A stretch of DNA of 41,481 nucleotides from a virus. Its lineage: Duplodnaviria > Heunggongvirae > Uroviricota > Caudoviricetes. The notes under the pieces are model-generated. The model was not told the origin of the DNA and made no database searches. It saw nothing but the letters and a program-made list of their open reading frames with translations. Numbering within the stretch: position 1 is the stretch's first letter; each line of letters starts with the position of its first letter. The stretch lies in IMG/VR virus record IMGVR_UViG_2519103024_000007; one strand, given 5' to 3'. Made by a program: the position numbers and the translations under genes. Positions 1 through 41,481 of the stretch are shown here, one piece after another.

Positions 1-318
1 ATGAAAAAGATAGCTGCTATATCATTAATTAGTGTTTTTCTTATGTCTGGGTGTGCTGTACATAATGATGAGACAAGTATCGGTAAATTTGGTCTTGCAT
101 ATAAAAGTAATATTCAGCGTAAACTCGATAACCAATACTACACCGAAGCCGAAGCTTCTTTAGCCAGGGGTAGAATATCTGGTGCAGAAAATATAGTAAA
201 AAATGATGCAGTTCATTTCTGTGTTACTCAGGGCAAAAAAATGCAGATAGTTGACCTGAAGACAGAAGGTGCAGGATTACATGGCGTCGCTCGTCTGACA
301 TTCAAATGTGGAGAGTGA
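1..318 (+). CDS. yegR: small host lipoprotein, YegR-like
   Basis: 105-aa ORF with N-terminal signal peptide and lipobox LMSGC; lies next to a P2-type att site opposite yegQ, which fits the E. coli yegR locus. Identity is by recall of locus layout, not by search. Confidence 0.5.
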   Translation: MKKIAAISLISVFLMSGCAVHNDETSIGKFGLAYKSNIQRKLDNQYYTEAEASLARGRISGAENIVKNDAVHFCVTQGKKMQIVDLKTEGAGLHGVARLTFKCGE

Positions 319-6839: not shown

Positions 6840-9052
6840 CTAAGCGGTAACGTTTTCCTCTTCTAGTTCGTCCATCATTTTTAAATAATGCATTTCGTCA
6901 CCAGTAGCTGAAAATATTGTTCTCAATTGTTTTAGGTATTTATCTGGGTCTATGTCGCCCATATCAGTAATATTTACCGCATCAGAGTGAGAACCTCTGT
7001 TAATGTATCTGTAGAATGCTTTGAAATCACTGTTGCTATCGTCGCGTGCCAACTTTGTTAATTCATCTTGTAGAGCATCTGTTCTATGAACAAATGCAAA
7101 ATAATATTCTAGTATGTTTCTCATAATATTCGGTATTATGATTTTGTTTGCTTTGCCATCTTTTGCATCTTTTAATATTTGCCACAAAGATTGATATTCA
7201 TTCTGTATGCTGTTTTTTGTATTTCAGTAATTATACTAAAATCATTTTTCGTTACTCTACCTAGATAATAGTTTTTCTTAAATAGTTTGTCTTCTCTGCT
7301 TTTAGGAGATAGCTTAATAAGTTCATGAAAGAAATAAAGATTGTGAGTAAGGATTAATACCTTCTTTGTTAATTCATTTTTTATAATGTGGTGATGAATA
7401 ATTGATGCGATGTCGTAGACATAGTTTTGCGATAGACTAGATATTGGATCGTCAATAACAATAAAAATATCCCTGCTATCGGTATCATTTTTATCGGTTT
7501 TACCTTTACAGCACTCTAAAAAATAAAGAAACGTTATTAGTGTTTTTTCACCTTCGCTAAGAGATCTATAAACATTTTGGTTTTTTGTATGCCCTGGTCG
7601 AGATATAATGTACATATCTTTTCTTTCTGCATGTTTTTCAATACAAAAACCAGAGATCCCTAGATTTTTTAAATGGGTGTTTATTGAGTCTATCGTAGAA
7701 TCAATGTTAGATATTTTATCTCGCAATGCTTTTATTGTGAGATTATTTTCTTTTCCTTGTTGCTCAATATTATTTAATTCATCATGAACTTTCTTTTTGA
7801 TATCAAAGAATTTTTCTTTGTGTTTGGATAAATTCTCTAAATCATCGCTGCAAAAAGCATGGAGAGCCCCCCAAACTTGTTTTCCGATTTTATTCTCATA
7901 CTCTTTGAGTTTTTTAACCTTATCATTTATGTCTCTTATTTTCTTGTTAACAGCGCCTATGCTTTCCTGAACATGATTTTCTAGTTCTTTATCAATTTCT
8001 AATGTAACGCATGTTGATGGATTGTTGATCTTATCAATAATGTTTATTAAATTTTTTCTGCAATGTTTTGCAATATTTTAATATTGGAAATAATGTTCTC
8101 TTTATCTTTCTCATTGATTAGTGCACATGATGATATATTGTTTTGTATTTCGTTAAAATGATATATGGTATTTTTCTCATAAACTGACTTTATATCTGAG
8201 AGCTGTTTTACTTTCTTTGAATAACTTTCGTCAAATATTGATTTAAGGGCATTTAAAAATTCGTGACTAATAGTTTTTTCCTGACAAAACGGACATGTAG
8301 AACCGTCTAAATAATGTTCTTTACCTTTTTTTACCCAGTCAAGATTATGAAGTTTATTAATGGTTTCTGATAAATAGCTATTGCTTGTATCTATTATAGG
8401 TGTTGCTAATGTATTTACATCATCAATTGATGGGGTATATGGATGTAAAGGAGTTATTAATGCGGTTTCATTGTTTCTATTTTCTAATAGTATAGAGTAT
8501 TCTTTTGCTATATCATTTAAATTAATAAAGGTGATTGGTGAGGATGATTTTATCATCTCAAAAAAGGTCTTTTATAGCCAACTTTACCTTTCATTAAGGT
8601 TTTTAGTACAGAGTTTCTGATTGGTTCTGTTTTTTTCCAGATCGATTCGATGTATTCATTTTCTTTTTTTCCATTTCTGCTTCTAATTTCAATAACACTC
8701 CTTTTTTTTGTCTATATTGCTCTGTGAGTTGCTGTTTAATTGCTTCTTTTTCAATTAATTGTTTTTCAATATCTGCATTTTCTTTACTTAATGTAAAAAC
8801 ACCTTTTTGTTCCTGTGCATTATAGAAGTTATCTTCAATAAATTTAGTGTTGTAAACAAGAGGTTTGTAATTGTCAAGAAGGGTACATTCACACTCGTTA
8901 TAATCTGTGTGTGTAGAGTCGTAGAAATAATTTGAAATGGTAGATTTGCCACAACCATTTTGGCCGTATAGTATGTTTACTCTTTTTTCAAGATTCAGTA
9001 TTGTGAAGGCGTCTTTCTTATAACTGGTAACATTTTTTAATCTAAGTTCCAT
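6840..9052 (-). CDS. AAA_13-like ABC-type ATPase, reading frame broken in three places (pseudogene or assembly indels)
   Basis: Four collinear minus-strand ORF pieces (9052-8603, 8556-8047, open frame 8077-7172, 7223-6840). Walker A GQNGCGKST, CPFC motif in a K/E-rich coiled-coil insert, ABC signature LSEGEK, Walker B IFIVIDD, H-loop LTHN. Region is strongly AT-rich. Confidence 0.6.
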
Positions 9053-9555: not shown

Positions 9556-10590
9556 TCAGCCGTTGTCAGTGTCCAGTGAGTAGTTTTTAAAGCGGATGAC
9601 CTCCTGACCGAGCCAGCCGTTTATTTCCCGAATCCTGTCCTGTAGCGGGATAAGTTCATTGCGGACAAAGACCTTTGCCACTTTCTCAATATCACCCAGA
9701 GCCCCGACGTTTTCCGGCTTGCCGCCCATCAACTGAAAGGGGATGCGGTGCGCATCCAGCAGGTCAACGGCGCTGGCTTTTTTGATATTAAAAAAATCGT
9801 CCTTCGTCGCCACTTCACTGAGCGGGATAATTTTAATGCCGTCGGCTTTCCCCTGTGGGGCATAGAGAAACAGGTTTTTAAAGTTATTGCGGCCTTTCGA
9901 CTTCACCATGTTTTCGCGAAGCATTTCGATATCGTTGCGGTCCTGCACGGCATCGGTGACGTACATGATGTATCCGGCATGCGCGCCGTTTTCGTAATAC
10001 TTGCGGCGGAACAGCGTGGCCGACTCATTCAGCCAGGCAGAGTTAAGGGCGCTGAGATATTCCGGCAGGCCGTACAGCTCCTGATTAATATCCGGCTCCA
10101 GCAGGTGAAACACGGAACCGGGCGCGAAAGGTGTCGGCTCGTTGAAGGACGGCACCCACCAGTAAACATCCTCCTCCACGCCACGGCGGGTATATTTTGC
10201 CGGTGAGGTTTCCAGTCTGATGATCTTACCGGTGGTGCTGTAACGCTTTTCCAGAAACGCATTACCGAACACCAGAAAATCCAGCACAAAGCGGCTGAAA
10301 TCCTGTTGCGAAAGCCACGGATGCGGGATAAATGTCGAGGCCAGAATATTGCGTTTAACGTAAATCGGTGAGCTGTGATGCACGGCAGCACGCAGGCTTT
10401 TCGCCAGACCGGTAAAGCTGACCGGCGGCTCATACCATCTGCCGTTACTGATGCACTCGACGTAATCCAGAATGTCACGGCGGTCGAGTACCGGCACCGG
10501 CTCACCAAAGGTGAATGCCTCCATTTTCGGGGCGCTGGCGGTCATTTTTTTTGCCGCAGGTTGCGGTGTTTTCCCTTTTTTCTTGCTCAT
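9556..10590 (-). CDS. Q: portal protein
   Basis: 344 aa, first leftward late gene next to cos; length as P2 gpQ. Confidence 0.9.
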   Translation of the reverse strand: MSKKKGKTPQPAAKKMTASAPKMEAFTFGEPVPVLDRRDILDYVECISNGRWYEPPVSFTGLAKSLRAAVHHSSPIYVKRNILASTFIPHPWLSQQDFSRFVLDFLVFGNAFLEKRYSTTGKIIRLETSPAKYTRRGVEEDVYWWVPSFNEPTPFAPGSVFHLLEPDINQELYGLPEYLSALNSAWLNESATLFRRKYYENGAHAGYIMYVTDAVQDRNDIEMLRENMVKSKGRNNFKNLFLYAPQGKADGIKIIPLSEVATKDDFFNIKKASAVDLLDAHRIPFQLMGGKPENVGALGDIEKVAKVFVRNELIPLQDRIREINGWLGQEVIRFKNYSLDTDNG

Positions 10591-12361
10591 CAGTAAAACT
10601 CCAGAATGGTGGATGTCAGCGGGGTGCTGATACCGGCGGTGAGTGGCTCATTTAACAGGGCGTGCATGGTCGCCCAGGCGAGGTCGGCGTGGCTGGCTTC
10701 CTCGCTGCGGCTGGCCTCATAAGTGGCGCTGCGTCCGCTGCTGGTCATGGTCTTGCGGATAGCCATAAACGAGCTGGTGATGTCGGTGGCGCTGACGTCA
10801 TATTCCAGACAGCCACGGCGGATGACGTCTTTTGCCTTGAGCACCATTGCGGTTTTCATTTCCGGCGTGTAGCGGATATCGCGCGCGGCGGGATAGAACG
10901 AGCGCACGAGCTGGAACACGCCGACACCGAGGCCGGTGGCATCAATACCGATGTATTCGACGTTGTATTTTTCGGTGAGTTTGCGGATGGATTCCGCCTG
11001 AGTGGCAAAGTCCATGCCTTTCCACTGGTGACGCTCAAGTATTCTGAATTTGCCACCGGCCACCACCGGCGGTGCCAGTACCACGCATCCGGCGCTGTCG
11101 CCACGGTGTGACGGGTCGTAACCAATCCAGACCGGGCGGGAGCCGAACGGATTGGCGGCAAACGGCGCATAGTCTTCCCATTCTTCCAGCGTGTCGACCA
11201 TGCAGCGTTGCAGCTCCTCGAACGGGAACACCGACGCCTTGTCGTCAACAAATTCACACATGAACAGGTTTTTAAAATCGTCGGCGCTGTTTTCGCGTTT
11301 GAGCTGTTCAATGTCGAACAGCGTGCAGCCACCTTTCAGGGCGTCCTCAATGGTGACAATCTGCCGCCACTGGCCGTCCGCACAGAGAAGCCCACCGGCA
11401 AGGGCGTTATGACTGACGTCGATTTCCACGCGTTCGGCGGCGCTGGCGCGTCCCCGGTTGAACAGTTCACCTGACCAGAACGGGTAGGCGTCGTGCGCCA
11501 GCGTGGACGGGGTGGAGAAATAGGTCGAGCGCAGGTGACTCTGTGAGGCCATACCTGATGCCACCTTACGCAGTACCTGAAAATTCGGGATCCAGAAAAT
11601 CTCGTCGACGTACAGGTCGCCGTTATGGCTCTGTGCGGTGTTGGAGTTGGTGCCGAGAAAAATCAGTTTTGCGCCGTTATTGCCCAGGACAATCGGGTCA
11701 CCGGTCAGGTCAACGTCAACCAGCCGGGCAAAGGCGATGATGTATTCGCGGAACACATACGCCTGCGTTTTACTGGCCGACAGAAAAATCTGGTTATGGC
11801 CGGTTTTCAGGGCGCGCAGCAGCGCCTCGCGGGAAAAATAAAACGTCGCGCCAATCTGGCGGGATTTCAGGATATCGCGGATGCGGTGCTCAAGCCCGGC
11901 GCGATACCAGTGCAACTGATAGTCGAAAGACTGCTCAAAGAAAATCTGCTCCAGCTTTTCGATGGCCTCGTCACTGAAAAAATTTTTTTCGGTTTGCGCC
12001 GCCCGCCTTTGTTGCGGTTAGCGACGTTCGGATTAAGGTCTGCCTCGTTGCCGGTCTGGCTGTAACGATTTACCCGTGCCAGTCGTTCAATCTGGCGTCC
12101 CAGCAGGTCAATTTCCTTGAAGTCACCGCCGGTTTTCTGCGGTTTGATGATGAGCTGGGTCAGCCGCGCTTCCAGGCTCATTTCGACACGGCTGATGGGG
12201 GCAACGTTGTCCCAGCCGTCGCGCTGTTTCCAGCTCTGCACTGTCGGGCGTTTCATCTGCAACATGGCGGCAATCTGCGGCACGGAAAATCCCTGCCAGT
12301 ACAGCAGCGCCGCCTGACGACGCGGGTCGTGTAAAAGAGTGGTGTCTGTGGTGATGGTCAT
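10590..12361 (-). CDS. P: terminase large (ATPase) subunit, frame break near 11995-12010
   Basis: N-terminal part (12361-11867) and C-terminal part (from about 12010 to 10590) lie in different frames; together 1772 nt, one short of a multiple of three. Conserved terminase sequence is read across the junction. Confidence 0.85.
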
Positions 12362-12534
12362 GAATACCTCGCCGTGATGAATACACGGCAAGGCTACTGA
12401 GTCGCGCCCTGCGATTCGCTAAGGTGCTGTTGTGTCAGTGATAAGCCATCCGGGACTGATGGCGGAGGATGCGCATCGTCGGGAAACTGATGCCGACATG
12501 TGACTCCTCTAATCACTATTCAGGACTCCTGACA

Positions 12535-24564: not shown

Positions 24565-24710
24565 GGAGCGGACTGACCTGCTTCCCGATGATTAATACAC
24601 AGCTATGCTAGTAATGTCCTAGACTGGCCCCCTGAATCTCCAGACAACCAATATCACTTATTTAAGTGATAGTCTTAATACTAGTTTTTAGACTAGTCAT
24701 TGGAGAGCAG

Positions 24711-25076
24711 ATGATTGATGTCTTAGGACCGGAGAAACGCAGACGGCGTACCACACAGGAAAAGATCGCAATTGTTCAGCAGAGCTTTGAACCAGGGATG
24801 ACGGTCTCCCTCGTTGCCCGGCAACACGGTGTGGCAGCCAGCCAGTTATTTCTCTGGCGTAAGCAATACCAGGAAGGAAGTCTTACTGCTGTCGCCGCCG
24901 GAGAACAGGTTGTTCCTGCCTCTGAACTTGCTGCCGCCATGAAGCAGATTAAAGAACTCCAGCGCCTGCTCGGCAAGAAAACGATGGAAAATGAACTCCT
25001 CAAAGAAGCCGTTGAATATGGACGGGCAAAAAAGTGGATAGCGCACGCGCCCTTATTGCCCGGGGATGGGGAGTAA
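24711..25076 (+). CDS. insC: IS2 transposase orfA (InsC-like, HTH)
   Basis: 121 aa from ATG 24711, [26 protein letters not shown]... Confidence 0.85.
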
Positions 25077-26135
25077 GCTTAGTCAGCCGTTGTCTCCGGG
25101 TGTCGCGTGCGCAGTTGCACGTCATTACGACGNNNNNNNNNNNNNNNNNNNNNNNNNNNNNNNNNNNNNNNNNNNNNNNNNNNNNNNNNNNNNNNNNNNN
25201 NNNNNNNNNNNNNNNNNNNNNNNNNNNNNNNNNNNNNNNNNNNNNNNNNNNNNNNNNNNNNNNNNNNNNNNNNNNNNNNNNNNNNNNNNNNNNNNNNNNN
25301 NNNNNNNNNNNNNNNNNNNNNNNNNNNNNNNNNNNNNNNNNNNNNNNNNNNNNNNNNNNNNNNNNNNNNNNNNNNNNNNNNNNNNNNNNNNNNNNNNNNN
25401 NNNNNNNNNNNNNNNNNNNNNNNNNNNNNNNNNNNNNNNNNNNNNNNNNNNNNNNNNNNNNNNNNNNNNNNNNNNNNNNNNNNNNNNNNNNNNNNNNNNN
25501 NNNNNNNNNNNNNNNNNNNNNNNNNNNNNNNNNNNNNNNNNNNNNNNNNNNNNNNNNNNNNNNNNNNNNNNNNNNNNNNNNNNNNNNNNNNNNNNNNNNN
25601 NNNNNNNNNNNNNNNNNNNNNNNNNNNNNNNNNNNNNNNNNNNNNNNNNNNNNNNNNNNNNNNNNNNNNNNNNNNNNNNNNNNNNNNNNNNNNNNNNNNN
25701 NNNNNNNNNNNNNNNNNNNNNNNNNNNNNNNNNNNNNNNNNNNNNNNNNNNNNNNNNNNATGCTGGGAGCGGTGGAACGCCGCTCGGCAACGAGCTTCCG
25801 GCGTCTCCAGTAGAGTGGCTGACGGATAATGGTTCATGCTACCGGGCTAATGAAACACGGCAGTTTGCCCGGATGTTGGGGCTTGAACCGAAGAGCACGG
25901 CGGTGCGGAGTCCGGAGAGTAACGGCATAGCAGAGAGCTTCGTGCGATAAAGCGTGACTACATCAGTGTCATGCCCAAACCAGACGGGTTAACGGCAGCA
26001 AAGAACCTTGCAGAGGCGTTCGAGCATTATAACGAATGGCATCCGCATAGTGCACTGGGTTATCGCTCGCCACGGGAATATCTGCGGCAGCAAGCCAGTA
26101 ATGGGTTAAGTGATAACAGGTGTCTGGAAATATAG
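25034..26135 (+). CDS. insD: IS2 transposase orfB (InsD-like, DDE), interrupted by assembly gap and an apparent small deletion
   Basis: N-terminal [23 protein letters not shown] and C-terminal ...[10 protein letters not shown] are on either side of the N run; premature stop at 25948-25950 (ESFVR*) where I recall extra bases in IS2. Confidence 0.6.
25133..25759. other. assembly gap (627 N)
   Basis: Uninterrupted run of n inside IS2. Confidence 1.
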
Positions 26136-26198
26136 GGGCAAATCCATGTCCGTAGATCGCTGTGTGTTGCATCCATCGGTTGAACTCACAGTCCAAAC

Positions 26199-26441: not shown

Positions 26442-27284
26442 ATGAAAAAAGAATTGTTTGGACGTTGCCCGTTTGATCTTGACGAAGATGTAAAAAAAAT
26501 AGCCGCGATAAATAAATATATCCATGCAAAATTTGAGGAGCATAAAAATAAAATAGACAACCTAAAGGGTGTGGAACAAAAATTGATGGTCTTACAGTAC
26601 TTTAATGTACTGAATGAACTTAGTAATCAGGCTATCTCTTCTTTGAATATAGGAGCCTTTTCAGCATCGGAAGTATTAGCTAGGGTTATAATAGAACAGG
26701 CTGCCAATCAATTTTATATAGCAATAGATGATGGCGAAAATGCACAAGCATTACTCAAGGCTAGTAAGAAATTAGTTCATAGTAATGGAAAACGGTGGCT
26801 GGAGTGTTTAAAATCCAAAGGAATGACTAATCCAGCAGCAAATGAAAGGATTCGCATGGGAAAAGAACTAACTGATCTATTTAATAGATTGTGGCCAAAT
26901 ACACCTGAATATCCAGGAACCAGAAGACTTTTTGAATTAATTGGCTGGGAAACACACTATCATGCCCATTACGTTCCCCTTTGTGATTCAATACATACAT
27001 TCTCTGATGATATGGTAAATATAGTATCTCTATATAATGCAATCCAAAGTGATGAAAATACTGCTATCGAATTCATTCTTGCAGTTAAACAAGAAAATAA
27101 ACGGCTGGCAATTTATAATTTTGTAATTGCTACGGCCCTTCGGTGTGAGGCCTTAGTAAATGTATTTAACTCTTTAGGTTATCAGGATATTATAACAGAA
27201 ATGACACCAACAATAGATACAGTCAACCAGACTATAATTCGATATGATGATTTTGATCATTCCAGAATTGATGATTGTCAATAA
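26442..27284 (+). CDS. hypothetical protein, 280 aa, no motif recognised (cargo gene 1)
   Basis: AT-rich ORF with strong RBS; soluble, no TM segment; no catalytic motif I can assign by eye. Confidence 0.6.
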   Translation: MKKELFGRCPFDLDEDVKKIAAINKYIHAKFEEHKNKIDNLKGVEQKLMVLQYFNVLNELSNQAISSLNIGAFSASEVLARVIIEQAANQFYIAIDDGENAQALLKASKKLVHSNGKRWLECLKSKGMTNPAANERIRMGKELTDLFNRLWPNTPEYPGTRRLFELIGWETHYHAHYVPLCDSIHTFSDDMVNIVSLYNAIQSDENTAIEFILAVKQENKRLAIYNFVIATALRCEALVNVFNSLGYQDIITEMTPTIDTVNQTIIRYDDFDHSRIDDCQ

Positions 27285-27390
27285 TTAATTGACAGAATAC
27301 GTACATGCGCAACAACTAGTGATAGTTGACTTATTTTCGCTCTTGAGAGACAACCATACTCAAATCTCCCACATTGCAGGAGATTTGAAT

Positions 27391-27975
27391 ATGAAAACGT
27401 CACCGTGGAATAAAGACCGTACCATCGGTCAAAAAAGGCCACTTCAGATATTTCATATCTGGGGGATCCGGATTAGACTTGAGTTGGAAGGTAAAACACG
27501 CGATCTAGCTCTGTTCAACATGGCTTTGGACACTAAGCTACGGGGCTGTGATTTGGTCAAACTCAAAGTATCAGATGCTGCATATGGCAGTTCTGTCTCA
27601 AGCAGAGCAACGGTGTTGCAACAGAAAACCGGCAGCCCTGTCCAATTTGAGATAACCAAAGGGACAAGGGAAGCGGTTACTGCATTGATAAAGCTCGGCA
27701 ACTGGCATAGTAAAGGCTTCCTGTTCCGCTCTCGGGTCGGAACTAACCACCATATATCAACCCGGCAATACAACCGAATTTTTCATGGGTGGGTAGAAAA
27801 GCTTGGTCTCGAAGATTCGCTGTACAGCACACATTCCATGAGAAGAACAAAACCTTACTTAATCTACAAGAAAACCAAGAGTCTCCGGGTGATCCAACTT
27901 CTGTTGGGCCATAAGAAACTGGAAAGCACAGTCCGTTATTTGGGCATTGAAGTCGATATAGAAGGTCTCTTTTAA
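27391..27975 (+). CDS. short tyrosine recombinase, catalytic domain only (FimB/FimE-like size)
   Basis: ATG 27391 with RBS AGGAG 8 nt upstream (track ORF starts at upstream TTG 27289); box I LRGCDLVKL, conserved K in QKTG, box II HSMRRT...LLGH...TVRY; about 194 aa, no N-terminal core-binding domain. Confidence 0.65.
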   Translation: MKTSPWNKDRTIGQKRPLQIFHIWGIRIRLELEGKTRDLALFNMALDTKLRGCDLVKLKVSDAAYGSSVSSRATVLQQKTGSPVQFEITKGTREAVTALIKLGNWHSKGFLFRSRVGTNHHISTRQYNRIFHGWVEKLGLEDSLYSTHSMRRTKPYLIYKKTKSLRVIQLLLGHKKLESTVRYLGIEVDIEGLF

Positions 27976-28705: not shown

Positions 28706-29938
28706 ATGAGTGACTATCATCATGGCGTGCAGGTGCTGGAGATTAACGACGGCACCCGCGTCATTTCCACCGTATCCACTGCCATTGTCGGCATGGTCTG
28801 CACGGCCAGCGATGCGGATGCGGAAACCTTCCCCCTCAATAAACCGGTGCTGATTACCAATGTGCAAAGCGCAATTGCAAAGGCCGGTAAAAAAGGCACG
28901 CTGGCGGCATCGTTGCAGGCCATCGCTGACCAGTCAAAACCGGTCACCGTTGTCGTGCGCGTGGAAGACTGCACCGGTGATGACGAGGAAACGAAACTCG
29001 CGCAGACCGTTTCCAATATCATCGGCACCACCGACGAAAACGGTCAGTACACCGGACTAAAAGCCCTGCTGGCGGCGGAGTCGGTAACCGGTGTTAAACC
29101 GCGTATTCTCGGTGTGCCGGGACTGGATACCAAAGAGGTGGCTGTTGCACTGGCATCCGTCTGTCAGAAGCTGCGCGCTTTCGGATATATCAGCGCATGG
29201 GGCTGTAAGACCATTTCCGAGGTGAAAGCCTACCGCCAGAATTTCAGCCAGCGTGAGCTGATGGTCATCTGGCCGGATTTCCTCGCATGGGATACGGTCA
29301 CCAGTACCACCGCTACCGCGTATGCCACCGCCCGTGCGCTGGGTCTGCGCGCTAAAATCGACCAGGAGCAGGGCTGGCATAAAACGCTGTCCAACGTCGG
29401 GGTAAACGGTGTTACCGGCATCAGCGCATCTGTATTCTGGGATTTGCAGGAGTCCGGCACCGATGCTGACCTGCTTAACGAGTCAGGCGTCACTACGCTG
29501 ATTCGCCGCGACGGTTTCCGATTCTGGGGTAACCGTACCTGCTCTGATGACCCGCTGTTCCTCTTTGAAAACTACACCCGCACCGCGCAGGTACTGGCTG
29601 ACACGATGGCTGAGGCGCACATGTGGGCGGTGGACAAGCCCATCACCGCAACGCTGATTCGCGACATCGTTGACGGCATCAATGCCAAATTCCGTGAGCT
29701 GAAAACAAACGGCTATATCGTGGATGCGACCTGCTGGTTCAGCGAAGAATCCAACGATGCGGAAACCCTCAAGGCCGGAAAACTGTATATCGACTACGAC
29801 TATACACCGGTGCCTCCTCTTGAAAACCTGACCCTGCGCCAGCGTATTACCGATAAATACCTGGCAAATCTGGTCACCTCGGTTAACAGCAATTATAAGG
29901 AGCCTGACCGATGGCAATGCCGCGCAAACTCAAGTTAA
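28706..29938 (+). CDS. FI: tail sheath protein
   Basis: 410 aa as read; 3' end overlaps FII by 28 nt, so the true stop may differ. Confidence 0.9.
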   Translation: MSDYHHGVQVLEINDGTRVISTVSTAIVGMVCTASDADAETFPLNKPVLITNVQSAIAKAGKKGTLAASLQAIADQSKPVTVVVRVEDCTGDDEETKLAQTVSNIIGTTDENGQYTGLKALLAAESVTGVKPRILGVPGLDTKEVAVALASVCQKLRAFGYISAWGCKTISEVKAYRQNFSQRELMVIWPDFLAWDTVTSTTATAYATARALGLRAKIDQEQGWHKTLSNVGVNGVTGISASVFWDLQESGTDADLLNESGVTTLIRRDGFRFWGNRTCSDDPLFLFENYTRTAQVLADTMAEAHMWAVDKPITATLIRDIVDGINAKFRELKTNGYIVDATCWFSEESNDAETLKAGKLYIDYDYTPVPPLENLTLRQRITDKYLANLVTSVNSNYKEPDRWQCRANSS

Positions 29939-35347: not shown

Positions 35348-35411
35348 GTCGATGTGGTCAATGTGTGGACGTGACCAGAAATAAATCCTTTTATTTCATT
35401 GTGTTACGCGT

Positions 35412-35438
35412 AAAAAATAAGCCTGCGTAAGGGAGATT
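35412..35438. repeat. prophage attR core (27 bp, 2 substitutions versus attL)
   Basis: AAAAAATAAGCCtGcGTAAGGGAGATT; overlaps the 3' terminator of cyaR. Confidence 0.7.
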
Positions 35439-35498
35439 ACACAGGCTAAGGAGGTGGTTCCTGGTACAGCTAGCATTTTATGGGTTATGTTTTTCAGC
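35412..35498 (-). ncRNA. cyaR: CyaR (RyeE) small regulatory RNA
   Basis: Reverse complement reads GCTGAAAAACATAACCCATAAAATGCTAGCTGTACCAGGAACCACCTCCTTAGCCTGTGTAATCTCCCTTACGCAGGCTTATTTTTT, matching the E. coli CyaR sequence as I recall it except for two bases in the terminator arm; 87 nt ending in U6. Confidence 0.8.
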
Positions 35499-35532
35499 GA
35501 AACGGATGATAACCTTAATAAATGCAGCTGTA

Positions 35533-35548
35533 TGTGATCGGTTTCTAA
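35533..35548. promoter_or_regulatory. candidate CRP site (TGTGA-N6-TCTAA) for the cyaR promoter
   Basis: Centred about 42 nt upstream of the cyaR 5' end, with a TATCAT -10-like hexamer at 35506-35511 (minus strand); CyaR is known to be CRP-activated. Confidence 0.45.
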
Positions 35549-35582
35549 GAATTTTCCATCCGGGAAAAATAATCGAAATTAA

Positions 35583-36944
35583 TCACTTACCGTGGGGGTT
35601 ACGCGTGGTTTCCCCGGAGAAATTACGCATCAGCAGCGCGTAATTTAGCTCAAGATCCTGCGGCACCGGGAGCCACACAGTATAACCATCGCCTGGTGCG
35701 ACCGGCATCGCTTCACCTTTGGCGTTTTCCATATGCTCAAGGGTAAAGTTAATGTTGCCTTGCGGCGTCATCAGCTCAAGGCTGTCGCCAACGGAGAATT
35801 TATTTTTCACCGCTACCGCCGCGAGCTCCCCCTTGCGCTCACCGGTAAACTCACCAACAAACTGCTGGCGGTCAGAAACCGAATAACCGTATTCGTAGTT
35901 CTGATAATCGTCGTGGGTATGACGACGCAGGAAACCTTCGGTATAGCCACGATGCGCCAGACCTTCCAGCGTTTCCAGCAGGCTGGTATCGAACGGTTTG
36001 CCCGCAGCGGCGTCATCGATAGCTTTACGGTAAACCTGCGCGGTGCGTGCGCAATAGTAGAAAGATTTGGTACGGCCTTCGATTTTCAGCGAATGCACGC
36101 CCATTTTGGTCAGGCGTTCAACATGGGCGATGGCGCGCAGATCTTTCGAGTTCATGATGTAAGTGCCGTGCTCATCTTCAAACGCGGTCATATACTCGCC
36201 CGGACGCTGGGCTTCTTCGATCATAAACACTTTGTCGGTTGGCGCGCCGATACCCAGCGTCGGCTCAACATTTTGCACCGGAATCGGCTCGTACTTGTGT
36301 ACGATGTTGCCGACGTCATCTTCTTTCCCTTCCTGGACATTGTACTCCCAGCGGCAGGCGTTGGTGCAGGTGCCCTGGTTCGGGTCGCGCTTGTTGATAT
36401 AGCCAGAGAGCAGGCAGCGACCGGAGTAGGCCATGCACAGCGCGCCGTGAACGAAGATTTCGATCTCCATATCCGGCACCTGATTGCGGATCTCTTCAAT
36501 CTCTTCCAGTGACAGTTCGCGAGAGAGGATCACGCGGGTCAGACCCATTTGCTGCCAGAATTTCACCGTCGCCCAGTTTACGGCGTTAGCCTGTACCGAG
36601 AGGTGGATTGGCATTTCCGGGAAGTGTTCACGCACCAGCATAATCAGCCCTGGATCGGACATAATCAGCGCATCCGGCCCCATTTCCACCACCGGTTTCA
36701 GGTCACGGATAAAGGTTTTCAGCTTGGCGTTGTGCGGTGCAATGTTGACCACGACATAAAACTTTTTCCCCAGCGCGTGGGCTTCATTGATGCCGAGCTG
36801 AAGATTTTCGTGGTTGAATTCGTTGTTGCGTACACGCAGGGAGTAACGCGGCTGGCCCGCATAAACAGCATCTGCGCCATAAGCGAAAGCGTAACGCATA
36901 TTTTTCAGCGTTCCCGCCGGGGAAAGGAGTTCCGGTTTAAACAT
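35583..36944 (-). CDS. yegQ: peptidase U32-family protein YegQ / TrhP
   Basis: 453 aa, MFKPELLSPAGTLKNMRYAFAYGADAVYAG... with U32 Cys-rich motif; host gene beside cyaR. Confidence 0.85.
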   Translation of the reverse strand: MFKPELLSPAGTLKNMRYAFAYGADAVYAGQPRYSLRVRNNEFNHENLQLGINEAHALGKKFYVVVNIAPHNAKLKTFIRDLKPVVEMGPDALIMSDPGLIMLVREHFPEMPIHLSVQANAVNWATVKFWQQMGLTRVILSRELSLEEIEEIRNQVPDMEIEIFVHGALCMAYSGRCLLSGYINKRDPNQGTCTNACRWEYNVQEGKEDDVGNIVHKYEPIPVQNVEPTLGIGAPTDKVFMIEEAQRPGEYMTAFEDEHGTYIMNSKDLRAIAHVERLTKMGVHSLKIEGRTKSFYYCARTAQVYRKAIDDAAAGKPFDTSLLETLEGLAHRGYTEGFLRRHTHDDYQNYEYGYSVSDRQQFVGEFTGERKGELAAVAVKNKFSVGDSLELMTPQGNINFTLEHMENAKGEAMPVAPGDGYTVWLPVPQDLELNYALLMRNFSGETTRNPHGK

Positions 36945-37385
36945 AATTCTCTCGTTCTGATGACAGGTCAGAGCCGCTTCACCTGATGAAGCGGTTAGGG
37001 GAGTGCCCCCACTTTAAGGGCGGGCATTGTAGCGCAATCGGCGGGTTTAGCTCCAGTGTAAATGTGAGGGGAGAAGTGGCAGAGATGGGAGTATCTACAC
37101 GAAATCTTCATGTAGTGATAAAAGAAAAAGTTGACGATACTGACTACTTTCCTGAATGTTCATCCCCTGATAATTATGAATGTATTTGCCGTCCTCTTAC
37201 AGCCTGAATTATTGAGGATGTAAAATAATGTCATTTATCTCAATTATTCACTAAAATAAACTGCAAATATAAGACATAATTTCCAAAGTTTGTGACGCTG
37301 CCACTATTGAGTTTACGTTATTTTCTTGAGTGGCTTACTTGAGTATGTACCTGCAACCATGCTGATTTAGATAAAAAATCTATAG

Positions 37386-37414
37386 TCAACAATTATTGCT
37401 TTGAGTGATATAAT
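37386..37414 (+). promoter_or_regulatory. candidate sigma70 promoter (TCAACA-17-TATAAT) for the terminal three-gene operon
   Basis: -35-like TCAACA 37386-37391, 17-nt spacer, TATAAT 37409-37414, ATG at 37432. Confidence 0.35.
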
Positions 37415-37431
37415 AAACACGGGCGGATGTT

Positions 37432-38646
37432 ATGACTGGAAATATTCACCAGAATTATAATGCAAGGGATGTAATTAATGCCCCGGAAGTAAAAACAGCA
37501 ATTTTGCAAAGAAGTCTGTTTCGCCAGGATAATGAGACCATCCAAAAATGGTTACTCAACCATTTTTATCGATGGCTAATTAGTGACTTTCCAATGGTGC
37601 AACAAATTAACTCGCTTGCAGAATATTCACTGTTTAATAAAAATGATGATGTAATCCCGGAATGGCTGGTATCGAAGTTTAATACTGCCTCAGTATCAAC
37701 TGCGACACTTTATTATATCGAAACCGATCATCAACAAATATTAACCAAAGAACGGGAGTTGGTGGAATTTCTTTCCAGGAAATGTGGTACCCGTCTGGAA
37801 TCAAAACTACAGCGCATAACCTGCTACGTTGCGTTCAGAATGCGTGAAGAAGAGCATGAAAAGATGCTTCAACGACGCGAGAAAGGGTGGCAGCCGAGTG
37901 AACAAAATACTGTAAAGTCAATACTTGATGTGCCAGACGGAAAAATTGTTGAGTTTGATGCCAGTCATTCGAACCTTCGTCGTGAAATGGCTTATGAATC
38001 ATGGCATATGCAACATTGCGTAGGCCAGTTTGATGATCGAAAAAATCTTACCGGTGGTTATGGTGAGTATTATGCAAATCAAATTGAGCAACATAAATTA
38101 CGGTTATTCAGTTTGCGTGATAATAATAATATTCCTCATGTTACTATTGCTCTCAATGTTGTTGGTGATTCACTTGAAATTGATCAAATAAAAGGTAAGC
38201 AAAATCGTCATCCAGTTAAAAAATATGCGGACGATGTTTTGTCTCTTTTGCAACTATTATCACCACAAGCAGTTCGACATAGTGATTGTGAAGGTATGGG
38301 TATTGTTTATGAAAATACACCTGAATATCAGGGGTGGAAATATGTAACGGAAGTATACGAAACCAGTTTTTTACTAAGCGTACTACATAATAACTTTCAT
38401 TTATTAGAACATTTTACAAATCCTTCAGTGGAGTTGCAGTGGTTACTGTTACACAGCGCACCTGATAAGTTACATTATCTTAATGCTATTGACCCTATAG
38501 TTGCTACTTCTGCGGAAATGTTATTCCCTGGCGCTGAGTGGCATCCGCAATTTGCAGGTCAAAATATCAGCAACATTTCCTTTGAGATAGAGAGTTTGAC
38601 ATTACAGACATCTCATTACTTACCCCTGTCAGAGGTTGAAAAATAA
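37432..38646 (+). CDS. hypothetical protein, 404 aa, possible PcfJ-like domain
   Basis: AT-rich ORF; the segment ESWHMQHCVGQF...LFSLRD...IDQIKGKQN resembles what I recall of the PcfJ-like domain; tentative. Confidence 0.55.
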   Translation: MTGNIHQNYNARDVINAPEVKTAILQRSLFRQDNETIQKWLLNHFYRWLISDFPMVQQINSLAEYSLFNKNDDVIPEWLVSKFNTASVSTATLYYIETDHQQILTKERELVEFLSRKCGTRLESKLQRITCYVAFRMREEEHEKMLQRREKGWQPSEQNTVKSILDVPDGKIVEFDASHSNLRREMAYESWHMQHCVGQFDDRKNLTGGYGEYYANQIEQHKLRLFSLRDNNNIPHVTIALNVVGDSLEIDQIKGKQNRHPVKKYADDVLSLLQLLSPQAVRHSDCEGMGIVYENTPEYQGWKYVTEVYETSFLLSVLHNNFHLLEHFTNPSVELQWLLLHSAPDKLHYLNAIDPIVATSAEMLFPGAEWHPQFAGQNISNISFEIESLTLQTSHYLPLSEVEK

Positions 38647-39362
38647 TGAGTCTTATCATTGTTCTCCTGGTCGCAATATTTATTTTTATCTATAGATACA
38701 AAAAAAACAAACCACAAATCGATGCTTTTATTGCTAAAGAAAAAGAAAAGGATCTAATCAAGGACAAAAGACGAGCAACAAAGAGACGTAAGTGGGCATT
38801 AGCAATTGGTGATATAGTTGCTCGTCGTAATGGACTGTCAGTAAATGGCTTCACGTTAGATTTAAAGTTGACTGATGATAAGCGTCAACAACTTGCACTA
38901 CAGGTTAAACAAGAGCTAGGAACAGAAACTTACCAAAGCAACGAAGATTTCCGTCAACAAATTGGCGTTATATTACAGCGCTGGGCTACAGGGCTTGGTA
39001 ATTCTCCACATGATTTTTACGAACAACTGGCAGCACAAGGCCAGGTTCTGGATGGGCTGGCGTTTGACTGTATGCGCACTGCTTTTTTAACTCGTTGCAT
39101 CGCCGGTTTAGGCTGGTGCGATGAAAACCAGGCCTGGATAGTGTTATTACTGAATGCTCAAAGAGCACAAGATTGTTTCGCTTCATGGGAAGATTATGCC
39201 AGTGCTTATGTTCGCGCCCGACAAAAATGGTTAATGATATACGATACCCCCGTCGCCACTGCGAACCGTGATTTAAAGGAAGTCACTGCATGGTTGAAAG
39301 ATCCATTCAGTAACTGGAAAAAATTGCCGTGGAATGAATTTAAAATTTTTGAACCTAATTAA
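38646..39362 (+). CDS. hypothetical membrane-anchored protein, 238 aa
   Basis: Start overlaps the upstream stop (TAATG); N-terminal TM helix (LIIVLLVAIFIFIY) followed by a basic stretch. Confidence 0.55.
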   Translation: MSLIIVLLVAIFIFIYRYKKNKPQIDAFIAKEKEKDLIKDKRRATKRRKWALAIGDIVARRNGLSVNGFTLDLKLTDDKRQQLALQVKQELGTETYQSNEDFRQQIGVILQRWATGLGNSPHDFYEQLAAQGQVLDGLAFDCMRTAFLTRCIAGLGWCDENQAWIVLLLNAQRAQDCFASWEDYASAYVRARQKWLMIYDTPVATANRDLKEVTAWLKDPFSNWKKLPWNEFKIFEPN

Positions 39363-39372
39363 AAGGATATCT

Positions 39373-41481
39373 ATGGAACAGGATGCTCGTTTACTCAGTG
39401 CAATGCAAAAGATGTGTGACCAAAAAATGCCACTTAATACTCTTGAGAGAAAATGGCAAATCGCAAATATTCCTTATATGTTACAAGAAAAACGTTATCA
39501 GGAACTAGATGAAATTTATAACCAGGTATTACAGGAGAGTTTCACTTCTCGTCAGGCTGAAAAGCGCTATTTTTTATCCTGGACCCAAATGTGCAACTAT
39601 TTTTATGATATGAACACGCTAGTTGATGCCGGAACAGAAGGTTTAAGACTCATTAAAACCTGGCAGCAAGCAAGACCTCATTCTACACATGCCTGGCTTG
39701 CCGAAGCACAATACTGGAATCACCGTGCATGGTTATATCGCAGTTATGGCTGGGCAAATGATACCACACATGCAATGTGGCTTTGTGCTGGTGCATGTAA
39801 TGAACAAATGGTCATCGCTACACTTAAAGCAATTGATTGTGACCCACGACAATGGATGGCTGCATTACTTACCAGCACCAACTCAAAAGTATTTGGTCAG
39901 CCAGCCTGGCTGGCGGCACACCTTAACGGTGATAGTGTCGCAGGAATACCATTAATGATCGCACTGAAAAATTATCACCGCCGCTCCCCGCAAGAAGTGG
40001 AAGCGTTGATGGCGTATTCCGGACTTTCGTTTGAGCATGCAATATGCCCCGTTTTGCCTCGCCCCAATATACTTCCTGAGTATGATGATGATGGTGGGCA
40101 AAAATATTGGCTTTCTGTTTGCCTGACTATTTTTCCTCACACTTTTTATCCTTTTGTTGAATATATACCATTTCGAATGCCACGCTGGGGAGGGTCGCAT
40201 AAAGAAATTTCCGAATTGCTGGATTCAGTAACCTGTAAGCACTTATCTACCGAAGAACATGACTATATGGATCTCTTACTTTGGTGGGATGATTACCGAG
40301 ATGTCAGCATTGAGGACATTGCGCCCGAGGAGCAACAATATGCAATCGACTTAGCAGAGAATATTGCTCAGTACGCACAATTTCAGGAATGTCGCCATAA
40401 TGCCCTAGAGTGGTTACTTGCCTGCTATAACAAGCAGAACGATCACGATAAGTTGTGGTGCTGTATACAGCGAGCGGTGATGGAAGACATGAAGCTCAAT
40501 AATTATTACACTGCGTACGCGATAAAATTTGCATTAAGTTATTATCCAGATTCATTCTGGATATATAATTTTATCTGCCAAAATTCACAGAATACAACTT
40601 ATGCTACACCTGTTATTTATAGGGGGTTTTTCCAGCGAGAGGGTATTTTGGGTTTTGAAAAAGATGAAGGGCAGGGCGATGCTTGGCTGGAAAAAACTAG
40701 TGACATTAAATACAATCATAATTGGCGGTCGGCAATAAAAGATTTGAGTTGGTTTGACCTTTCTGATTATTTCATTCCGCTTGCGACAATTGGTAAGCAA
40801 AGAAATATTCCTGCCGCATTAAATTTAGTTGCTCTTGAATATTTGGATAAGGAAGACAATACAAAATTACCTTATGAACCATCTACAGCTTTGGAGTATT
40901 TTCGACGGGCACTTAAAATACTTCAAGATGACCTAAATTTCCATAGCTCGGTATCTTATCCACTGGTAAAAAATTATGGTTATAGCGAACATCAACAAGA
41001 TCTACAAAATATTTATTTTAGCATTGCTATCTGCTACCAGGCACTAAATAAACAAGAAATTTCTAAAGAAACACGGGCTATTTATGAAAAAAATCTCCTT
41101 GACAATTTATTTCTGGCTCATGAAGCTGGACATGAAAAAGCATGGGGGCTTTTTTTACTTAATATCTTTGAGGTGAAAGAACTCTCACTTGCTCATTTGC
41201 ACCTCCAACAGGTACAAGAAGAAGCGAATAAAGGTACGCTCGAAGCAATGATTACTTTGTCGCGCCTGTATGGTAACAAAGAAGATGAAAAACTGTTTAA
41301 CATGAAACTCAGTGCGCGCTGGACACATTTTGCCGAGTCTTTATATCCAGATAACGAAATTATTGCAGATTGCCTTTATCATCTCCATTTCTCCAGCCTG
41401 TGGAAACGCTGTCGTTATGCCTGGTATACCTTTCGTATTCCAGCTAGCGAATTACCCGGCCAGGTTAACAGTATGGTGTAA
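39373..41481 (+). CDS. hypothetical large protein (about 702 aa from ATG 39373), Trp/Tyr-rich helical repeats
   Basis: ATG 39373 with AAGGA RBS just after the upstream stop (track ORF begins at an in-frame ATG 39334 inside the previous gene); stop is the last codon of the window. Confidence 0.55.
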   Translation: MEQDARLLSAMQKMCDQKMPLNTLERKWQIANIPYMLQEKRYQELDEIYNQVLQESFTSRQAEKRYFLSWTQMCNYFYDMNTLVDAGTEGLRLIKTWQQARPHSTHAWLAEAQYWNHRAWLYRSYGWANDTTHAMWLCAGACNEQMVIATLKAIDCDPRQWMAALLTSTNSKVFGQPAWLAAHLNGDSVAGIPLMIALKNYHRRSPQEVEALMAYSGLSFEHAICPVLPRPNILPEYDDDGGQKYWLSVCLTIFPHTFYPFVEYIPFRMPRWGGSHKEISELLDSVTCKHLSTEEHDYMDLLLWWDDYRDVSIEDIAPEEQQYAIDLAENIAQYAQFQECRHNALEWLLACYNKQNDHDKLWCCIQRAVMEDMKLNNYYTAYAIKFALSYYPDSFWIYNFICQNSQNTTYATPVIYRGFFQREGILGFEKDEGQGDAWLEKTSDIKYNHNWRSAIKDLSWFDLSDYFIPLATIGKQRNIPAALNLVALEYLDKEDNTKLPYEPSTALEYFRRALKILQDDLNFHSSVSYPLVKNYGYSEHQQDLQNIYFSIAICYQALNKQEISKETRAIYEKNLLDNLFLAHEAGHEKAWGLFLLNIFEVKELSLAHLHLQQVQEEANKGTLEAMITLSRLYGNKEDEKLFNMKLSARWTHFAESLYPDNEIIADCLYHLHFSSLWKRCRYAWYTFRIPASELPGQVNSMV

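Follow-up and report, generated by a model that had tools for sequence, protein, structure and literature searches.

The question raised by this locus is whether the terminase large subunit gene P of a P2-like E. coli prophage is truly broken, or whether the break entered the record when the DNA was sequenced and assembled. In the window, which is the whole 41,481-nt stretch of DNA that was analysed, P lies on the minus strand as two ORFs in different frames, as a preliminary description of this DNA had reported, and only after the addition of one base do these become one continuous ORF of about 590 codons. Both pieces (the 164-aa and 441-aa ORFs) match terminase domains, which rules out a chance ORF pattern, and the identification of the gene as a P2-type terminase large subunit of about 590 codons was borne out. 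Coordinates of all features are given in Table 1.

The frame break and the repaired gene P

The break was located by three-frame translation of positions 11850-12110 on the minus strand. The upstream frame encodes native P through ...RRKPKK (...NRNKGGRRKPKK) and then continues as the nonsense sequence IFSVTRPSKS..., while the downstream frame encodes native P starting at NFFSDEAIEKLEQ (NFFSDEAIEKLEQIFFEQSFDYQLHWYRAG). The native end of the one and the native start of the other confine the frame switch to the coding-strand stretch CCG-AAAAAAA-TTTTTT-CAG, in which two adjoining runs form an A7T6 tract. When the region was aligned with ATCC 11775, APEC O1, and three closer relatives (L019, L020, and L021), the sole gap was one base in the first of these runs (T8 in the relatives versus T7 in the window, as written on the plus strand), with identical flanks on either side. 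The 8-base version of the intact relatives codes Lys125-Lys126-Asn127 as AAA AAA AAT. The junction had earlier been placed in a GC-rich stretch (11995-12010) rather than in a long homopolymer, and neither part of that placement could be kept. The GC-rich stretch was rejected as the junction because the native P frame passes through it and its sequence is the same as in intact relatives, and the break is instead a loss of one base from an A8 run, 6-12 nt outside that stretch.

Table 1. Positions of gene P, its fragments, the contracted runs, and other features discussed in the text, numbered along the window
Feature	Position	Strand	Description
Gene P, terminase large subunit	10590..12361	-	1772 nt as deposited; 1773 nt (590 codons + stop) with 8-base run
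P 5' fragment	ORF 11867-12391, true ATG 12361	-	164 codons: 126 native, 38 out of frame, TGA end
P 3' ORF	10590..11915	-	441 codons, internal TTG start; Terminase_6N and Terminase_6C complete
Break site	11983..11989	-	plus-strand T7 = coding-strand A7; 8 bases in intact relatives
Adjoining run	11977..11982	-	plus-strand A6 = coding T6, Phe-Phe codons; same length as in relatives
GC-rich stretch	11995..12010	-	codes ...NKGGRRK...; matches intact relatives exactly; not the junction
Contraction	7219 (now 7213-7218)		T7 to T6; ATPase gene
Contraction	8058 (now 8052-8057)		T7 to T6; ATPase gene
Contraction	8566 (now 8560-8565)		A7 to A6; ATPase gene
Contraction	8671 (now 8664-8670)		T8 to T7; ATPase gene
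Contraction	11990 (now 11983-11989)		T8 to T7; P
AAA_13 ATPase gene	6840..9052	-	broken by four -1 homopolymer differences; 2.2 kb, 30% GC
Sheath gene FI	28706-29938	+	TA insertion 29896-29897: AAT TAA to AAT TAT AAG...
N run	25133..25759		627 N, inside IS2 copy 24620-26146

The addition of one T to the T7 run yields a 1773-nt ORF of 590 codons. The preliminary description had anticipated that an extra base might restore a single ORF of about 590 codons, and at the level of the sequence it does, giving a very common 590-aa allele whose exact protein occurs in at least 1000 public contigs. The repaired protein equals the P protein of the ATCC 11775 prophage apart from P580T, and intact P is annotated at 590 aa in ATCC 11775 and in the three closer relatives. 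Its domains are Terminase_5 (PF06056; residues 12-69, E = 1.3e-27), the Terminase_6N ATPase (PF03237; residues 164-386, E = 5.7e-60), and the Terminase_6C RNaseH-like nuclease (PF17289; residues 413-571, E = 3.3e-47). The break follows residue 126, within the linker that joins the Terminase_5 helix-turn-helix (HTH) to the Terminase_6N ATPase, and the 164-aa 5' fragment contains the HTH domain at residues 12-69. Within the 30 nt upstream of the internal TTG of the 441-aa ORF (context ATTTTCTTTGAGCAGTCTTTCGACTATCAG-TTG), no Shine-Dalgarno-like sequence was seen.

The repaired P resembles P2 gpP in its length of 590 aa, in its HTH, ATPase, and nuclease domains, and in its nucleotide sequence (98% identity over the 601 nt tested). 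The position of the gene, beside the portal gene Q and divergent from O-N-M, is likewise that of P2, and the same Q-P order, again divergent from O-N-M, was found in the annotation of three related records (L001, L002, and L010) and in the called genes of a fourth (L004). The deposited P differs from P2 gpP in being short of one base in an A8 run, which is confined to this allele group. P2 itself has AAG as the second Lys codon (AAAAAGAAT) and accordingly is without the long run. Judged by its sequence, the repaired P is an ordinary P2 gpP-type terminase, with nothing new about it.

Other differences in the window and the prophage setting

ATCC 11775 served as the first reference, after which the relatives L019-L021 were found by exact-protein look-up. 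Compared with ATCC 11775 (L001 and L003), the window has 6 SNPs, a TA insertion at 29896, and five one-base deletions; it is also without the ISEc12 copy in the hotspot ATPase gene and has an extra 1.5 kb at 24620-26146. ATCC 11775 was dropped as the nearest reference because L019-L021 share every SNP within positions 1-20589 of the window. Over these positions, the closest relative, L020 (KE700850.1), shows no substitutions and exactly five differences, all of which are losses of one base from A/T runs that are 7-8 bases long in the relative (Table 1). Altogether, relatives have 20 runs of 7 or more bases, 5 of which are contracted in the window. The window has 68 other runs, of 6 bases, and where it was aligned to a relative, none of these differed in length; no insertions or G/C-run changes were seen in runs. 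Contractions restricted to runs of 7 or more bases, with none in 6-base runs and no insertions, match the profile of homopolymer undercalling. By region, the contractions affect 5 of the 10 long runs in 7.2-12.0 kb versus 0 of the 10 elsewhere (Fisher p = 0.03).

Four of the five contractions lie in the AAA_13 ATPase gene, which is located between the replication gene A and the portal gene Q, at the ‘old/tin’ cargo site of P2. In PADLOC, the gene matches PDC-S06, a candidate defence family (E = 1e-254), and its C-terminal part is PrrC-like. It encodes an intact protein of 738 aa in L019-L021 and is split by ISEc12 in ATCC 11775. The earlier statement that most other P2-like genes here are intact holds for nearly all of them, the exceptions being this ATPase gene with its four breaks and the sheath gene FI, in which a stop-codon change is common to relatives. 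The sheath protein is lengthened from 396 to 410 aa by the TA insertion, and its gene now extends into the beginning of the tube gene. The insertion was considered as another error and rejected as such, since it also occurs in three assemblies (L015, L018, and L022); it was therefore treated as real and looks like a real lineage allele.

The extra 1.5 kb is an IS2 copy, flanked by a 5-bp duplication (TGTCC), whose TnpA scored 276 bits (cutoff, 229 bits). It is located immediately downstream of the tail-fibre assembly gene, and the insertion is absent from ATCC 11775. The gap of 627 N within IS2 identifies the source of the window as a gapped draft scaffold.

The prophage is located between yegR and yegQ (window positions 1-318 and 35400-41481), and an empty yegR-yegQ site is present in another genome (L017). 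The APEC O1 prophage is 97-98% identical and lies between pflA and pflB, with other cargo and with ISEc12 in the sheath region. At the position of Z/fun in P2, between the tail-fibre and sheath genes, the window encodes a DUF5677 protein and then a short ORF that resembles tyrosine recombinases (26442-27975, plus strand), a pair also found in ATCC 11775.

Run lengths in other genomes and the origin of the record

A 601-nt stretch of P was found in 100 phage records and in 1522 of 5426 complete E. coli genomes, and every one of the best matches exceeded the query by one base. A shorter query of 86 nt, with the run at its centre, had an exact match in 0 of 1457 complete E. coli genomes carrying the stretch, a search that could miss A7 alleles with a SNP in the flanks. 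For the ATPase gene, carriers of the full-length gene were found in 44 genomes; none of the best matches listed had the length of the window, and most of the records listed were 4 bases longer.

The products of the split P are nevertheless present in public data. The exact 164-aa frameshift product occurs in 17 contigs, its 90% cluster comprises 121 variants, and the 441-aa 3' product occurs in 164 contigs. Several carriers of A7 are noisy, as other genes are also split by run contractions in L005, L007, and L009. Two more records, L037 and L038, have two or three of the ATPase contractions in common with the window, in addition to new ones; their accessions fall within the ranges that include L006, L007, and L009. 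In six GCA_9744... assemblies from one project (L039-L044), P is split at the same A-run. The portal is shortened (329 aa) or the O, P, and Q genes are multiply fragmented in this batch, which looks like uncorrected long-read homopolymer error across the whole submission. The occurrence of the same contractions in noisy assemblies of long-read character indicates that these particular runs are recurrently undercalled.

Other carriers are cleaner. The Logan contigs L006 and L008 have A7 in P and no other indel over about 5 kb, and long, clean-looking contigs (L026 and L028-L030) have the T8-to-T7 contraction at 8671 alone, with P intact. From these two sets of records, real alleles of such a kind probably exist somewhere. 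Some ten independent runs or assemblies, of differing backgrounds, have the lone contraction at 8664-8670, with products of 149 aa and 585 aa (L026 and L028-L035); some of these contigs are 45-77 kb in length with P intact, and this tract may be naturally polymorphic.

The 164-aa product leads to the scaffold HE572566.1 (GCA_000285375.1), which is 100% identical to the window wherever the two were compared. A C-to-T change at 39307, which gives S221F in a DUF1266 gene (38646-39362, plus strand), is present in only a handful of public contigs. It is common to the E. coli HM605 protein EIL71908.1 and the draft assembly GCA_014411765.1; the latter matches the window without differences for 12.8 kb, on a contig that starts exactly at the IS2 edge. 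The rare S221F marker and the 12.8 kb of identity link the window to HM605 or a clone-mate, from which it very probably derives. The contiguous IS2 junction was found in no complete RefSeq genome. A literature search found no mention of HE572566 or GCA_000285375, and the sequencing platform is not stated in other HM605 papers. The HM605 genome (2011) was reportedly obtained by 454 pyrosequencing, a technology that undercalls long homopolymers.

Sequencing error, slippage, or recoding

The split of P is most likely a homopolymer-length miscall, in which the A8 run would have been read as A7 during the sequencing or assembly of the gapped draft scaffold HE572566.1 (GCA_000285375.1). This reading follows from the five contractions being one-directional and length-dependent against a background of zero substitutions relative to L020, from four of them lying in one gene, where the second to fourth frameshift would be biologically redundant, from their absence in the fetched relatives and their not being evident among the best-matching complete genomes listed, and from the gapped scaffold as the source. 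We infer that all five contractions arose in sequencing or assembly and not in the bacterium. The pattern resembles the homopolymer errors of flow-based (454, Ion Torrent) and nanopore sequencing in draft assemblies, in that only the longest A/T runs are shortened, by one base each and without substitutions, apparent frameshifts occur in conserved genes of a scaffold with N gaps, and the changes are absent from close relatives. It differs from such errors in that the contractions of the window cluster in about 5 kb and are not window-wide. A uniform error process would not predict the clustering in 7.2-12.0 kb, but it would be expected from low coverage of this region or from the high AT content of the ATPase gene. 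Two further points stand against an undercall: A/T runs of 8 bases are genuine slippage hot spots too, and some decay is plausible in a prophage that bears IS2.

The same points lend some weight to a genuine slipped-strand deletion from A8 to A7 in the bacterium, by which a cryptic prophage would be in early decay; we consider this unlikely. The break does stand in the public record, long A/T runs are among the natural indel hot spots, L006 and L008 bear A7 in P without any other indel, and the contraction of the 8671 run occurs alone on long, clean contigs. IS2 in the window and ISEc12 in the ATPase gene of ATCC 11775 indicate that these prophages do gather lesions, and the 441-aa ORF is without a good start or an upstream Shine-Dalgarno sequence. 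However, a genuine deletion at this site needs to be accompanied by others, amounting to five independent -1 events with no substitution since the separation from L020-type relatives, four of them in an already-dead gene and none accompanied by insertions or by G/C-run changes. The gapped draft source and the contraction of identical sites in noisy data sets also argue against it. As in slipped-strand mispairing at mononucleotide tracts, a change of one base in either direction would switch the reading frame of P. The P tract differs from contingency loci of that type in showing no evidence of conservation, of selected variability, or of two lengths in one clone.

If A7 were real, it could be leaky, with -1 ribosomal or transcriptional slippage on A7U6 restoring some full-length P, so that terminase supply and packaging would be low-level, tuned, or phase-variable via a mononucleotide tract. 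Read from the letters of the tract, a -1 shift at any point in CCG AAA AAA AUU UUU UCA would regain the P frame at the cost of at most one Asn-to-Ile change, and the 121 sequence variants in cluster 1 of the frameshifted product count on the same side. This possibility is nevertheless very improbable, as conservation of the run is lacking: in P2 and more distant peduoviruses, the ORF is uninterrupted and the site reads AAAAAGAA(T/C). Alignment of P2 and relatives from Salmonella, Yersinia, and Klebsiella found no conservation of the slippery tract, with AAAAAGAAC at the site in the relatives from these three genera and GATAAAAAC in a Y. enterocolitica phage, and the A8 tract thus reads as a lineage-specific synonymous AAG-to-AAA variant. 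The zero frame contains no canonical X XXY YYZ heptamer, A8 intact alleles are far commoner than A7, and many of the A7 cases come from noisy assemblies. Nor do homologues need a shift, as they code P in one frame at 590 aa. A programmed frameshift was rejected as unsupported, given that the run is not conserved and that the relatives read P in one frame. The site is like the programmed -1 frameshift of the P2 tail-assembly genes E/E', the recoding site known from this phage family and located elsewhere in the window, in that a slippery run rich in T/A links two overlapping frames. Unlike the P site, which intact relatives read straight through, the E/E' site is conserved in the family together with both of its products. 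A functional split terminase, in which the HTH and the ATPase-nuclease would cooperate as two proteins, is scarcely credible. The position of the break in the linker favours it, since Terminase_5 and Terminase_6N are both left whole, but the last 38 residues of the 5' fragment are out of frame, the only start of the 3' ORF is a TTG that lacks a Shine-Dalgarno-like sequence, and all related phages and prophages examined have one 590-aa protein.

The readings have different consequences for the prophage. Were the deletion genuine, P would stop after residue 126 (plus 38 junk residues) and the prophage, intact in other respects, would lose DNA packaging; as the downstream ORF has only a TTG and no Shine-Dalgarno-like sequence, the ATPase and nuclease would not be expected to be made. 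On this point we agree with the preliminary description, which held that a real lesion would make the prophage packaging-defective. Taken at face value, the record would have the prophage annotated as defective in packaging and its cargo gene, a defence candidate, as a pseudogene with multiple frameshifts, and both calls rest on five one-base differences in run length that are absent from every close relative. The value of the analysis is therefore mainly one of quality control, and neither outcome raises a new question. A real lesion would represent ordinary prophage decay by homopolymer slippage. With the homopolymer miscall that we favour, P in the real DNA would be a normal single 590-codon terminase gene, and the site of the break would have no biological meaning.
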